DNA of 64,000 bases, taken from the NCBI GenBank assembly GCA_963700555.1, contig CAVOXZ010000011.1:98060-162059 (forward strand), given 5' to 3'. This stretch comes from an uncultured Chloroflexia bacterium (lineage in GTDB: Bacteria > Chloroflexota > Limnocylindria > Limnocylindrales > CSP1-4). Every line of letters begins with the position of its first letter. Positions within the stretch are counted from its first letter, which is position 1. The notes below the pieces were generated by a model, which worked only from the letters and a program-made list of their open reading frames with translations, was not told where the DNA came from and did not search any database. A program made the position numbers and the translations under genes. Shown in pieces: positions 21,703-23,474 of the stretch.

Positions 21703-22062
21703 CTACGCCGGGTCTCGCTGGATGGGTTCCTCCTCGACCCGATAGCCGGCGCGCAACGTGCCGTCGACGAACGCGTCAAGGGTGTCCGCGCCGCGGAGGA
21801 GCTGCCCCAGCTCGCCCTCGGTCTCCGCCGTCATGAAGGTCGCCGTTGCGAACGGATGGGTCACCGGTGGCTCGCCCGGGCGCGGCGGTGGCGCCGACAG
21901 ACTGACCAGGATCCCCGGTCTCCCGATGAGGTCCAGGACCTGGCGATCGTCGCGGAACACGCGCAGATGCCGCTCCTCGCCGGGCACAACCGGGCTTGGT
22001 GCCGCTGCTCCCGCATCCGGGGGATCGCCGGTCATGTCATGGTCGTTCGGCGCCAGCGGCAT
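21703..22062 (-). CDS. small hypothetical protein downstream of toxin-like gene
   Basis: GAGGAG RBS precedes the ATG at 22062 (MPLAPNDHDMTGDPPD...). 119 aa, acidic, located 50 nt after the upstream stop. Confidence 0.5.
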   Translation of the reverse strand: MPLAPNDHDMTGDPPDAGAAAPSPVVPGEERHLRVFRDDRQVLDLIGRPGILVSLSAPPPRPGEPPVTHPFATATFMTAETEGELGQLLRGADTLDAFVDGTLRAGYRVEEEPIQRDPA

Positions 22063-22112
22063 CAGGGTCTCCTCGCGGGGTTCGGGCCGGCCTCGGTCCG
22101 GGTCGTGCAGCC

Positions 22113-23474
22113 TCAATGCTGGAACACCGACTGAAGCAGGGCAAGCATGCCCGGGTCGTTCGTGGCGAGCCACGCACGCGTGTACATCGCCCGATCGTCG
22201 TCACCATTCGTGTACGGGTGCCCCAGGTAGGCCGCCGCGGAATTGCCGAAGTACTCCTCCTTGTTCGCCGCGGAATACCAGGCTGGGTTGAGCCACATCG
22301 CGGTCGCGGCGTTCGCGGGCGTCGTTGGGGTGATCGGGCCGCTGGCCGCCAGCCGGGCGGTGTAGAGCTGCTGGAGCGTGGCCAGCTGGGCCGCGGTGAA
22401 GCTGCTCGCCTGGAGCGCATGCCCGCCCTCGTGGGCCGCCAGGAACCCGGTCCCGTAGCCGGCCGGCTTGCCCGGGACGGAGACGAGGTCCTCCTCGGCG
22501 ATCGCGAAGCGATGGACGCCGCCGATGTCGGACTGGATTCCGCGGACGTTGTCCCACAGCCGACCGTCGAACGTCTGGGTGCCCTTGAGGTGGGCGTACT
22601 CGGGGAGGTCCGTGAGCTGCTTGTCGTGCGGGATGACGTCGAGGGCGACGCTCGTGGTCAGCAGCCGGGCCTTGCTCGGGTTCGTCAGGTCCCCAAAGAG
22701 CTCCACCGCTGCCTGGCGGGCGGCTGCGACCGCGCCCTCCGAGGCCCCATGGCCAAGCACCTGGACCGGCAGGTCGGCGAGCGGATCCACGTCCGGTGGG
22801 ACGTCGGGCTTGCCCGCGGTGAGCGCGCCCCAGGTGAGTGGTCCAACGATCCCGTCCGGTTCCAGGTCGTGAGCGTGCTGGAAGGCAATCACCGCGGACT
22901 TCGTCAACGGCCCGAAGATGCCATCCGCTTCGAGGGCCGGTGCAGCCCCCTGGTCGTTGAGGCGGGACTGGAGGTCGACAACCGCGGGTCCTCTCGATCC
23001 TCGTCGGAGCGTCGGCCTGCCGGTCGAGCCGCCGGCCGCGCTGCCGGCCGCGCCGGGCTGGGACTGGCCCTCGAGGGCGCCCATCCCCTCTCCGATCCGC
23101 TCGGTCGGCGCCAGCTCCTCGCCCTCCACCGAGCCGAAGATCACCATCCCCGGAAGCTCCCCCATGTCGAGGACTCCGCCCTCGGCCTCGCTGCCCGGAG
23201 GTGGGTCCTCCTCGATGCAGGTGCGCTGGATGACGAGGGCGCGCGCCGAAGCCCCGACCAGGGATGCGACTGCCCGGTTCCCGGCAGTCCGCTGGAGATG
23301 CTGGAGGTCGGGATGCCCGACCGGAGCCGGCCCGCGTTCGCCTCGAGACGCGCGGCTGGCGGCCGCGAGCGATCCCAGGGCGGCCGCGTCCAGGGTCCTC
23401 CTCGGGGCGCAGGGCAATCGCGCCTGACCCCCGGGACCGGTCCGGTCGCACCCGTAGACGCTCCATCGCCGCAT
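22113..23474 (-). CDS. secreted toxin-like protein: LQRxAGNxAV motif, peptidoglycan-binding domain, C-terminal HExxH metallopeptidase-like domain
   Basis: HLQRTAGNRAVASLV lies near the N-terminus. LRRGSRGPAVVDLQSRLN...DGIFGPLTKSAVIAFQ...DGIVGPLTWGAL is a PG_binding_1-like repeat. FLAAHEGGHAL is an HExxH motif inside a lethal-factor-like context (EYAHLKGTQTFDGRLWDNVRGI). The start codon is uncertain. Confidence 0.7.
   Translation of the reverse strand: MRRWSVYGCDRTGPGGQARLPCAPRRTLDAAALGSLAAASRASRGERGPAPVGHPDLQHLQRTAGNRAVASLVGASARALVIQRTCIEEDPPPGSEAEGGVLDMGELPGMVIFGSVEGEELAPTERIGEGMGALEGQSQPGAAGSAAGGSTGRPTLRRGSRGPAVVDLQSRLNDQGAAPALEADGIFGPLTKSAVIAFQHAHDLEPDGIVGPLTWGALTAGKPDVPPDVDPLADLPVQVLGHGASEGAVAAARQAAVELFGDLTNPSKARLLTTSVALDVIPHDKQLTDLPEYAHLKGTQTFDGRLWDNVRGIQSDIGGVHRFAIAEEDLVSVPGKPAGYGTGFLAAHEGGHALQASSFTAAQLATLQQLYTARLAASGPITPTTPANAATAMWLNPAWYSAANKEEYFGNSAAAYLGHPYTNGDDDRAMYTRAWLATNDPGMLALLQSVFQH

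Follow-up and report, generated by a model that had tools for sequence, protein, structure and literature searches.

The window, a stretch of 64,000 nucleotides on contig C11 of a soil-type Chloroflexota genome, carries a gene pair that we read, with a probability of roughly 65%, as a mobile cassette of the polymorphic toxin/immunity type, made up of a cargo-type M34 zinc endopeptidase toxin and its cognate 119-aa immunity protein. Judged from its sequence, the toxin would be a polymorphic toxin of the eCIS type, encoded as an orphan and of the already known ALF-metallopeptidase kind, accompanied by a new immunity family. The first-pass annotation had described an LQRxAGNxAV leader, a Gly/Ala/Glu linker, a PG_binding_1 domain and an AAHEGGHAL motif, followed 50 nt downstream by a small acidic ORF with its own GAGGAG ribosome-binding site; all of them were recovered where it had placed them (Table 1), the small ORF coding for a product of pI 4.5 with 20 acidic and 10 basic residues.

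Table 1. Features of the toxin and partner genes (positions in the window).
Feature	Position	Strand	Description	Basis
Toxin gene	22113..23474	(-)	453 aa + stop; leader, linker, PG_binding_1, M34/PPEP-like peptidase	ORF and translation
Toxin residues 1-47	23334..23474	(-)	Disordered N-terminal segment	pLDDT 33-47
Toxin residues 54-75	23250..23315	(-)	Two-helix leader with LQRTAGNRAV (eCIS-type tag)	Predicted model
Toxin residues 76-150	23025..23249	(-)	Gly/Ala/Glu-rich linker	Predicted disordered
Toxin residues 161-218	22821..22994	(-)	PG_binding_1	Pfam PF01471, E 4e-17
Toxin residues 224-229	22788..22805	(-)	DVPPDV, Pro-Pro linker preceding the peptidase	Homologue alignment
Toxin residues 237-453	22116..22766	(-)	Predicted zinc metallopeptidase toxin domain (M34/ALF-MPTase, PPEP-like), 217 aa	Model, Foldseek, profile
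Toxin residues 304-312	22539..22565	(-)	GRLWDNVRG, counterpart of the PPEP S-loop	Conservation and alignment
Toxin residues 348-352	22419..22433	(-)	HEGGH, predicted zinc-binding and catalytic	HExxH on active-site helix, within AAHEGGHAL
Toxin residues 400-407	22254..22277	(-)	Y-SAANK-EE, predicted oxyanion Tyr and Glu-Glu with third zinc ligand	Conservation
Partner ribosome-binding site	22069..22074	(-)	GAGGAG, 6-nt spacer to the ATG	Direct reading
Partner gene	21703..22062	(-)	Putative immunity/inhibitor protein, 119 aa + stop	ATG at 22062, 50 nt past the toxin TGA
Partner residues 31-113	21724..21972	(-)	Conserved core: three strands, loop, strand, two helices, strand	Model and alignment A2
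Partner residues 55-72	21847..21900	(-)	Exposed conserved loop LSAPPPRPGEPPVTHPFA	Coil between strands, pLDDT 70-78

The toxin ORF has a codon-position GC content (GC1/2/3 = 0.73/0.55/0.87) typical of coding sequences in this genome and, since the best match among the homologues of its peptidase domain reaches E 1e-145, that domain is not a product of chance. The start codon is uncertain, a homologue with 99% identity beginning about 21 codons later, and a promoter/terminator scan retrieved no transcription signals. The leader is modelled as two helices (residues 54–64 and 66–75, pLDDT ~75) and includes the sequence HLQRTAGNRAVASLV (residues 59–73); the linker that follows has pLDDT values below 50 at residues 77–150. 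The PG_binding_1 match lies well above threshold (62.6 bits against a gathering score of 23), and both sequence and fold searches of this region in the PDB returned the peptidoglycan-binding domains of endolysins, SleB and DD-peptidases. Neither a Sec signal nor a conserved Tat signal was detected in the window protein; the stretch RRTLDAAALGSLAAASRA in the N-terminal segment, considered as a Tat signal on account of its RR, was rejected because it is missing from close homologues. A role for PG_binding_1 as a prodomain that carries a cysteine switch, as in the MMPs, was also discarded, as the linker lacks a conserved Cys. A Pro-Pro pair is found at the position of the second linker, the one preceding the peptidase, in 18 of 33 homologues, several of which read VEPPVP, and DVPPDV might possibly be an autoprocessing site.

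According to profile and structure-model comparisons, the C-terminal domain is predicted to be a metallopeptidase of the M34/ATLF fold type with a complete set of catalytic residues, which bears out the lethal-factor-type fold proposed in the initial reading of the sequence. The AlphaFold model of the domain (pLDDT >90) retrieved PPEP-2 and PPEP-3 as best Foldseek matches (E 3e-5 to 8e-4, target-normalised TM 0.59–0.71), followed by anthrax lethal factor and Certhrax. Likewise, a domain-only profile (alignment A4, 26 sequences) matched PPEP-1 over its full length with E 5.7e-9, then PPEP-2 (3.7e-5), PPEP-3 (6.6e-5), lethal factor (7.9e-5) and MtfA (0.01). By these comparisons the nearest solved relatives are the Pro-Pro endopeptidases, with lethal factor further off. 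The window toxin alone reached no Pfam peptidase model, ATLF included; 20 of 47 homologues reached ATLF at E <= 0.01, with one of them (L018) above the gathering score.

The active-site positions point in the same direction. H348, E349 and H352 of the HExxH motif, as well as Y400 and E407, are invariant both in alignment A1 (47 sequences) and in A4, and the Tyr-x5-Glu-Glu arrangement (spacing 7) equals, in spacing and tandem Glu, that of Tyr190/Glu196-197 in PPEP-3 and of Tyr178/Glu184-185 in PPEP-1. The segment GRLWDNVRG aligns with GKTWDDVPG of PPEP-1 in an S-loop pattern G-R-x-W-D-x-V-x-G, with R305 invariant and W307 conserved in at least 90% of the sequences in A1. In the PPEPs this basic-x-aromatic element (Lys101/Trp103 in PPEP-1, Arg111/Tyr113 in PPEP-3) belongs to a loop that closes over the prolines at P1' and P3', and their specificity is documented (PMC12828418). 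A Pro-Pro specificity is predicted for the toxin, which is filed as PPEP-like and not as PPEP proper because it is multidomain and has no conserved signal peptide, PPEPs proper being stand-alone, Sec-secreted enzymes.

How the toxin leaves the producing cell is suggested by its leader. The LQRxxGNxAV motif had been described as recurring at the N-termini of actinobacterial DUF4157-type proteins regarded as secreted or injected effectors; in the genomes compared here it is statistically tied to the presence of an eCIS. An eCIS locus is present on contig C7 (~79.8–96.5 kb) with genes for Pvc16_N, DUF4157 (eCIS_core), AAA, sheath, gp19 tube, Phage_base_V spike and Baseplate_J, and the LQRxAGNxAV motif occurs in five ORFs of the genome, namely the toxin, the DUF4157 protein encoded in the eCIS locus and three others. 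The class was surveyed over 121 genomes, of which seven have both the leader and Pvc16_N, two the leader only, one Pvc16_N only and 111 neither (Fisher p 4.5e-9). In genomes holding the toxin/partner pair, Pvc16_N accompanies 19 of 23 leader/DUF4157 architectures versus none of 11 type VII/Sec architectures (p 4.8e-6), and in other phyla the same pair directly adjoins eCIS core genes (loci L018–L021 and L087). It is established that eCIS cargo carries N-terminal loading sequences recognised via an AAA+ protein (preprint 10.64898/2026.05.27.728243). We infer from the leader association that the toxin is probably cargo of such a phage-tail-like injection machine.

The toxin/immunity assignment could also be right with the toxin not being eCIS cargo, the LQR leader belonging to a different export route or having a different function, for instance as a helix that pairs with zincins of the DUF4157 type, and the toxin leaving by another route or acting after lysis of the producer. 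The gene is indeed unlinked to the eCIS operon, lying on a different contig and not within about ten genes of it, and the window toxin gave no match to PF13699 (DUF4157), the sole DUF4157 of the genome being on C7. In complete relatives the pair lies 0.2–1.9 Mb from the eCIS. Moreover, the two leader-only genomes (G099 and, weakly, G148) and four of the 23 leader-type carriers have no Pvc16_N, and published loading sequences are not conserved between systems (preprint 10.64898/2026.05.27.728243). Against this, two genome sets, independent of each other, both show a strong association of leader and eCIS, proteins in or beside eCIS loci bear the leader in the window genome and in related ones, and the toxin lacks a Sec or conserved Tat signal. 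Altogether we consider a non-eCIS toxin unlikely.

The second gene of the cassette is a genuine partner of the toxin. It has a GC3 of 0.83, and an assembly gene caller recorded the identical 119-aa product (P0094). By profile, of 80 related loci belonging to at least nine phyla, 54 have the partner family right beside the peptidase domain (Chloroflexota, Actinomycetota, Dormibacterota, Acidobacteriota, Verrucomicrobiota, Myxococcota/proteobacteria, Cyanobacteria, Bacteroidota and Elusimicrobia), which supports the effector/immunity-like pair of the earlier reading. In 50 of the 54 loci it directly follows the peptidase gene on the same strand, and in three of the remaining four it lies just upstream; the reverse look-up from partner seeds found the peptidase directly upstream in three of four loci. 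By contrast, a more distant Planctomycetota branch of the peptidase is without the partner family. In three loci (L013, L016 and L033) toxin and partner share one frame with a single TAG between them, so that read-through would give a natural fusion.

The pairing is kept whatever the delivery module. The N-terminal contexts of the peptidase domain comprise the LQR leader with PG_binding_1, DUF4157/eCIS_core and Sec signal peptides, and the same domain also ends giant WXG100-type type VII toxins carrying Gln_amidase, Ntox15 and TNT; peptidase and partner were also found together without any PG-binding domain. In Agromyces, the partner opens an array of immunity genes in which Tdi1, known to confer immunity to Ntox15, and Imm61 come next. 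The window shares no flanking gene with the closest loci (one weak MFS match is unrelated), which is why we regard the pair as a cassette and not as part of a conserved operon. The genome searched holds this single pair and no other copies, and the cassette is absent from all four sampled genomes of the same genus, two of which (G048 and G108) carry the eCIS marker.

The partner family, with 388 cluster representatives, has no counterpart in the collections searched. Pfam and NCBIfam returned only sub-threshold noise (Nif11, DUF2852) for the window partner and all 33 aligned members, the PDB sequence profile gave nothing at E <0.1, and Foldseek with the structure model built from alignment A2 gave no PDB match at E <1. 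Conservation within the family is highest (residues 49–74, A2) in and around the exposed loop, which holds A57-P58-P59-P60-R61-P62, that is xxP|PxP, and then H69-P70-F71. A Pro-Pro pair is present in the loop of 119 of 122 unique members, and PPxP in 90. Seventeen of the 54 partners carry a lipobox or a hydrophobic leader, in about ten cases beside a toxin without one, which fits immunity against an incoming toxin. No export signal was found in the window partner, in any of the versions of monoderm type or in those of acidobacteria and verrucomicrobia; the absence suits an antidote that stays in the cytoplasm, yet it is awkward beside a wall-binding toxin and counts against our reading.

The composition of the loop also admits that the small protein, instead of inhibiting the peptidase, is cut at its Pro-Pro site and that this cleavage is the biological event, since in those same 90 members it fits the PPEP site consensus xxP|PxP, and in Firmicutes the PPEP genes adjoin the genes of their own substrates. 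However, a partner of about 85 aa has no further domain to be released or anchored, it accompanies the toxin domain even in type VII loci with several toxins, standing there at the head of a series of known immunity genes, and it exists in orphan and tandem copies as is typical for immunity genes. We judge a substrate role rather improbable. It also counts against our own reading that the match of the loop to the PPEP consensus could be coincidental, proline-rich loops and linkers being common. Finally, that the pair acts on the producer itself, in wall remodelling or lysis, with the partner as its brake, for example for eCIS particle release or developmental autolysis, would suit a PG_binding_1 domain typical of endolysins and autolysins and the producer lysis thought necessary for eCIS release (PMC8213781), but is very improbable given that domain and partner terminate type VII polymorphic toxins beside nuclease and NADase toxin domains, occur also with no PG-binding domain, rely on a fold of protein endopeptidases that no muramidase or amidase is known to have, and are missing from the same-genus genomes, including the two with the eCIS marker.

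Under the reading as a toxin/immunity cassette, a single transcript would give both toxin and partner in the cytoplasm. There the partner would bind and block the peptidase, its loop (A-P-P-P-x-P, then H-P-F) possibly occupying the cleft in imitation of a substrate. The leader would then direct AAA+ ATPase-dependent loading onto the eCIS encoded on the other contig. Once the toxin has been injected into a nearby bacterium, it may be anchored at the wall by its PG-binding domain, while the peptidase may cleave proline-rich segments of the target's envelope proteins.

A bolder version, which we put forward tentatively and hold to be possible though with the odds against it, is that the ~85-aa partner family is the first dedicated M34 inhibitor acting via a Pro-Pro mimic, that PPEP-type enzymes are widespread antibacterial toxins, and that the linker serves for self-release. 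If so, the mimic would be A-P-P|P-x-P in the exposed loop, followed by a His able to reach the zinc; toxins of the PPEP type would travel by the eCIS, type VII and Sec routes and would cut the proline-rich linkers of envelope proteins; and the Pro-Pro linker before the peptidase (VEPPVP in relatives) would be the enzyme's own release site.

As regards novelty, the first reading had called the combination uncharacterised. This does not wholly stand for the toxin-domain class, already named Tox-ALF-metallopeptidase in PVC/eCIS toxins (Zhang et al. 2012, PMC3482391), and the logic of eCIS cargo is known as well; the partner family and its Pro-Pro loop do appear to be undescribed. What is new is a cross-phylum, unannotated putative immunity family forming a clean toxin/antidote pair, together with a structural hypothesis for a protein that blocks an M34 peptidase. 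The latter matters because, to our knowledge, no natural protein inhibitors are known for PPEPs and lethal-factor-type enzymes; a literature search combining PPEP with immunity terms retrieved nothing. A further prediction is that Pro-Pro endopeptidase chemistry, known so far as no more than a housekeeping trait of a few Firmicutes, may serve as an antibacterial weapon. The window toxin provides a further case, with statistics, of the LQRxxGN leader marking probable eCIS cargo encoded far from the machine, which helps to detect orphan cargo overlooked by neighbourhood-based predictors.

Among known systems, the best profile and fold matches are with PPEP-1 (Zmp1 of Clostridioides difficile), PPEP-2 and PPEP-3 (MEROPS M34), which share with the window domain the HExxH motif, the oxyanion Tyr, the Glu-Glu with the zinc ligand, the basic-x-aromatic S-loop and a similar catalytic-domain size. 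On the other hand, these are Firmicutes enzymes that release adhesins of the cell that makes them, whereas the window domain is a toxin module with an insertion of ~20 residues before the Tyr, 17–20% identity and a dedicated small partner. The catalytic domain of anthrax lethal factor and MtfA (peptidase M90) have the zincin sub-fold and the catalytic residue set in common with it, but are more distant than the PPEPs (E 8e-5 and 0.01 versus 6e-9); moreover, the lethal-factor accessory domains are missing from the window toxin and nothing points to an animal target. Some protein inhibitors of metallopeptidases, such as SMPI of Streptomyces, bind in a substrate-like manner; by analogy, the partner may place its exposed loop in the cleft, though without a sequence or fold relationship to SMPI-type inhibitors.

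Tox-ALF-metallopeptidase (PMC3482391) corresponds to the toxin in being an anthrax-lethal-factor-like, C-terminal HExxH domain with phage-tail-like delivery, often behind a PVC-metallopeptidase (DUF4157), and in a phyletic spread that includes Actinobacteria and delta-proteobacteria; relatives of the window toxin show these very architectures. It differs in that Imm-SuFu is the immunity listed, while the window partner is of another family with no Pfam model, in that only the PVC and T2SS routes are given for a domain that here also occurs in type VII WXG toxins, and in that the window toxin combines PG_binding_1 with the leader and lacks DUF4157. The eCIS-associated toxins (EATs) and the AlgoCIS cargo Cgo1/Cgo2 (PMC8213781, PMC11297309, preprint 10.64898/2026.05.27.728243) resemble it in their disordered N-terminal loading region and variable C-terminal toxin, the window genome having an eCIS with an AAA+ ATPase and some EATs having adjacent immunity genes. 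Unlike them, the window gene lies far from the eCIS operon, is devoid of DUF4157 and has a loading that is predicted; and whereas the published loading sequences are not conserved across systems, the window leader recurs across phyla.

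The toxin ORF shows codon-position GC values that are normal for the host genome (72–75% GC), and all the sequence features described in the first-pass annotation (leader motif, linker, PG-binding domain, HExxH motif and small downstream ORF) were found to be present. Where this large ORF starts is uncertain within some 20 codons. A Tat-signal-like stretch, RRTLDAAALGSLAAASRA (nt 23349–23402, residues 25–42), was not kept even in a 99%-identical homologue and is probably fortuitous.

Features of the toxin/partner pair and of leader-bearing loci on contigs of the same genome (C7, C11 and C16; L083–L086, locus handles)
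Feature	Position	Strand	Basis or content
Toxin ORF, 453 aa	22113-23474	minus	
Leader motif HLQRTAGNRAVASLV	residues 59-73	minus	translation
Gly/Ala/Glu linker, predicted disordered	residues 77-150	minus	pLDDT < 50
PG_binding_1	residues 161-218	minus	Pfam, E 4e-17
DVPPDV linker, between PG_binding_1 and peptidase	22788-22805, residues 224-229	minus	Pro-Pro in 18/33 homologues
AAHEGGHAL	residues 346-354	minus	translation
Partner ORF, 119 aa	21703-22062, 50 nt past toxin stop	minus	behind GAGGAG-N6
eCIS locus (L083)	C7 ~79.8-96.5 kb		stand-alone 202-aa leader+DUF4157 (eCIS_core) protein, AAA+ ATPase, WHD protein, Pvc16_N, sheath, two gp19-type tube genes, Phage_base_V spike, Baseplate_J
1212-aa Ala/Gly-rich leader protein (L084)	C11:334606-338241	plus	no Pfam match
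Annexin + DUF6782 putative metallopeptidase with leader (L085)	C16:32869-34119	minus	motif scan
Short leader protein ending ...SSYTPGAGNLY (L086)	C16:13068-13529	minus	motif scan

When searched alone against Pfam, the toxin matched no peptidase model. Its homologues (50 proteins, best E 1e-145) include some annotated as ATLF (PF07737, anthrax-lethal-factor-like) or Peptidase_M90, and 20 of 47 aligned members reached ATLF at E ≤ 0.01. An AlphaFold model from the 47-sequence alignment had pLDDT > 90 over residues 150–453, and Foldseek against the PDB ranked two Pro-Pro endopeptidases at the top, PPEP-2 and PPEP-3 (target-normalised TM 0.59–0.71, E 3e-5 to 8e-4), ahead of anthrax lethal factor and Certhrax. 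A profile of the peptidase domain alone (26 sequences) matched PPEP-1/Zmp1 over its full length (E 5.7e-9), as well as PPEP-2 (3.7e-5), PPEP-3 (6.6e-5), the lethal-factor catalytic subdomain (7.9e-5) and MtfA (0.01). The lethal-factor-type fold formerly proposed for the C-terminus is thus borne out, with PPEPs as the best matches of the region following the PG-binding domain.

Residues H348, E349, H352, Y400 and E407 are invariant in the peptidase. The arrangement Y400-x5-E406-E407 is the same as that of the oxyanion Tyr and the Glu-Glu pair including a zinc ligand in PPEP-3 (Y190, E196/E197) and PPEP-1 (Y178, E184/E185) (PMC12828418). Moreover, the invariant block T-F-D-G-R305-x-W307-D-x-V-R-G aligns with the PPEP-1 S-loop G-K-T-W-D-D-V-P-G, and in PPEPs the Lys/Arg and Trp/Tyr of this loop close over the P1' and P3' prolines (PMC12828418). 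The analysis thus shows which domains make up the protein and that its M34/PPEP-type catalytic apparatus is complete. Because of the fold and profile matches, the invariant catalytic residues and the S-loop correspondence, the C-terminal domain is an M34-type zincin with a full catalytic set, and among these enzymes it most resembles a Pro-Pro endopeptidase. The linker preceding it reads VEPPVP in several homologues (those cited for this segment being P0016, P0025, P0029 and P0038), close to the PPEP-1 site VNPPVP, and has six VEPPG repeats, (VEPPG)x6, in Salana multivorans; from its sequence, this Pro-Pro linker is a possible self-cleavage (autoprocessing) site.

The partner product is acidic (pI 4.5). 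By tblastn with the 119-aa product, then with a profile from 33 members, its family was found in 54 of 80 genome loci encoding a relative of the peptidase, in line with the effector/immunity-like pair suggested by the first-pass annotation. In 50 of the 54 loci the gene is on the same strand, with its start at −7 to +170 nt relative to the stop of the peptidase, and in three it is just upstream of the peptidase gene. Carriers belong to Chloroflexota, Actinomycetota, Dormibacterota, Acidobacteriota, Verrucomicrobiota, Myxococcota/proteobacteria, Cyanobacteria, Bacteroidota and Elusimicrobia. The rest of the 80 loci, in which the partner was not found, are either truncated by contig ends, isolated cases (a few singletons), or members of a distant, mostly planctomycetal peptidase branch (L048–L080; 25–31% identity, proteins of 500–1300 aa). 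Looking up in reverse from the partner, the peptidase was directly upstream in three of four loci. The fourth, a 527-kb groundwater metagenome contig, holds a 138-aa partner homologue, the most divergent of all, among small genes including a ParE toxin, with no peptidase gene near it; this homologue may be an orphan immunity gene.

Out of 1.84 billion cluster representatives, 388 belong to the partner family at E ≤ 1e-3, and any member with a name is named "hypothetical". No model was found in Pfam or NCBIfam, nor any PDB relative by sequence or by fold. The predicted structure (pLDDT 78) opens with three strands, which a long loop connects to a fourth; two helices and a last strand complete it. 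The best-conserved columns fall in and around the loop (P49-G50-x-x-x-S54 ... P59 ... P62 ... H69-P70-F71 ... A74), with Pro-Pro in 119 and P-P-x-P in 90 of 122 unique members. In several diderm lineages (L034, L036–L038, L042, L047, L050, L052, L053, L057, L059, L073) the partner reaches about 180–240 aa, its second half matching the profile weakly at best and, in the one read (L036), devoid of the Pro-Pro loop; L054 carries three partner domains in tandem.

The peptidase domain is C-terminal in every case, following varied N-termini: an LQR-type leader with PG_binding_1 in Chloroflexota, some Actinomycetota and Dormibacterota, a leader with DUF4157/eCIS_core in Acidobacteriota, Verrucomicrobiota and Nostoc, and a Sec signal peptide in Elusimicrobia and others. 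The Agromyces versions are giant proteins of 1650–1930 aa that combine the peptidase with Gln_amidase and Ntox15 (domain scans of L014 and L015) and TNT (L015), with WXG100 genes upstream (type VII; L014, L015, L017) and, in L014, a sub-threshold WXG100-like N-terminus. Using a simple GC3-based gene caller, the order 3' of the toxin was partner, a gene of 119–126 aa, Tdi1 and, in L015, Imm61. Tdi1 is the known immunity for Ntox15. Since the partner heads this array, it stands where the immunity gene for the last toxin domain belongs, and the 119–126-aa gene may be another undescribed immunity family. The partner is shown to stay with the toxin domain through different phyla and delivery systems, in an immunity slot. 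Signal peptides were called from hydrophobicity and lipobox pattern alone; on this basis 17 of 54 partners bear a lipobox or a hydrophobic leader. Among these, the peptidase also had a Sec-like leader in six and an eCIS-type N-terminus without export signal in about ten. A signal-bearing partner beside a signal-less toxin is, as read from sequence, the pattern expected of immunity to an incoming envelope-acting toxin. No export signal was found on the window partner, nor on any monoderm-type, acidobacterial or verrucomicrobial version; in this lineage the antidote to a wall-binding toxin would be cytoplasmic.

The host MAG (3.3 Mb, 22 contigs, 72.5% complete; window C11:98060–162059) encodes a complete-looking eCIS locus outside the window. 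A strict L-Q-R-x-x-G-N-x-A-V scan retrieved five ORFs, including the toxin and the DUF4157 protein of that locus; the other three (L084–L086) are probably further orphan eCIS cargo. A 39-position leader profile was run on 121 genomes sampled from the class: nine were leader-positive and eight had Pvc16_N (7 genomes with both, 2 with the leader alone, 1 with Pvc16_N alone and 111 with neither; Fisher p 4.5e-9), many leader matches lying within a few kb of a Pvc16_N gene. Among pair-carrying genomes, Pvc16_N occurs in 19/23 with leader or DUF4157 architecture versus 0/11 with type VII or Sec architecture (p 4.8e-6). The leader is thus statistically tied to eCIS, and the pair is directly beside eCIS core genes in L018–L021 and L087. 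In the latter, a 254-kb JGI metagenome contig, a 466-aa DUF4157+peptidase protein and its partner stand at the head of the eCIS operon, with the Pvc16_N, sheath and tube genes following directly. DUF4157 is a marker of eCIS toxins (PMC8213781, PMC11297309), and loading of eCIS cargo depends on a disordered sequence at its N-terminus and on an AAA+ ATPase (preprint 10.64898/2026.05.27.728243).

The pair is an accessory cassette: single-copy in its genome, it lies between a same-strand amidohydrolase gene and a convergent selA-selB-mobA operon, was found in none of the 120 further genomes sampled from the class, four of which belong to its genus, and shares no flanking gene with its closest relatives.

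We infer that the leader would load the toxin into the eCIS, the PG-binding domain would localise it at the target wall, and the partner would bind and inhibit the peptidase. Hypothetically, the peptidase might cut Pro-Pro sites of envelope proteins, and the partner loop might mimic a substrate by sitting in its cleft, which would bring His69 close to the zinc. The window loop A57-P58-P59-P60-R61-P62 has the PPEP site pattern x-x-P|P-x-P, and the substrate peptide EPLPPPP has been co-crystallised with PPEP-3 (PMC12828418). Zhang et al. 2012 (PMC3482391) already named the toxin class Tox-ALF-metallopeptidase, found mainly in PVC/eCIS toxins, and listed Imm-SuFu as its immunity; the present partner belongs to a family other than Imm-SuFu.
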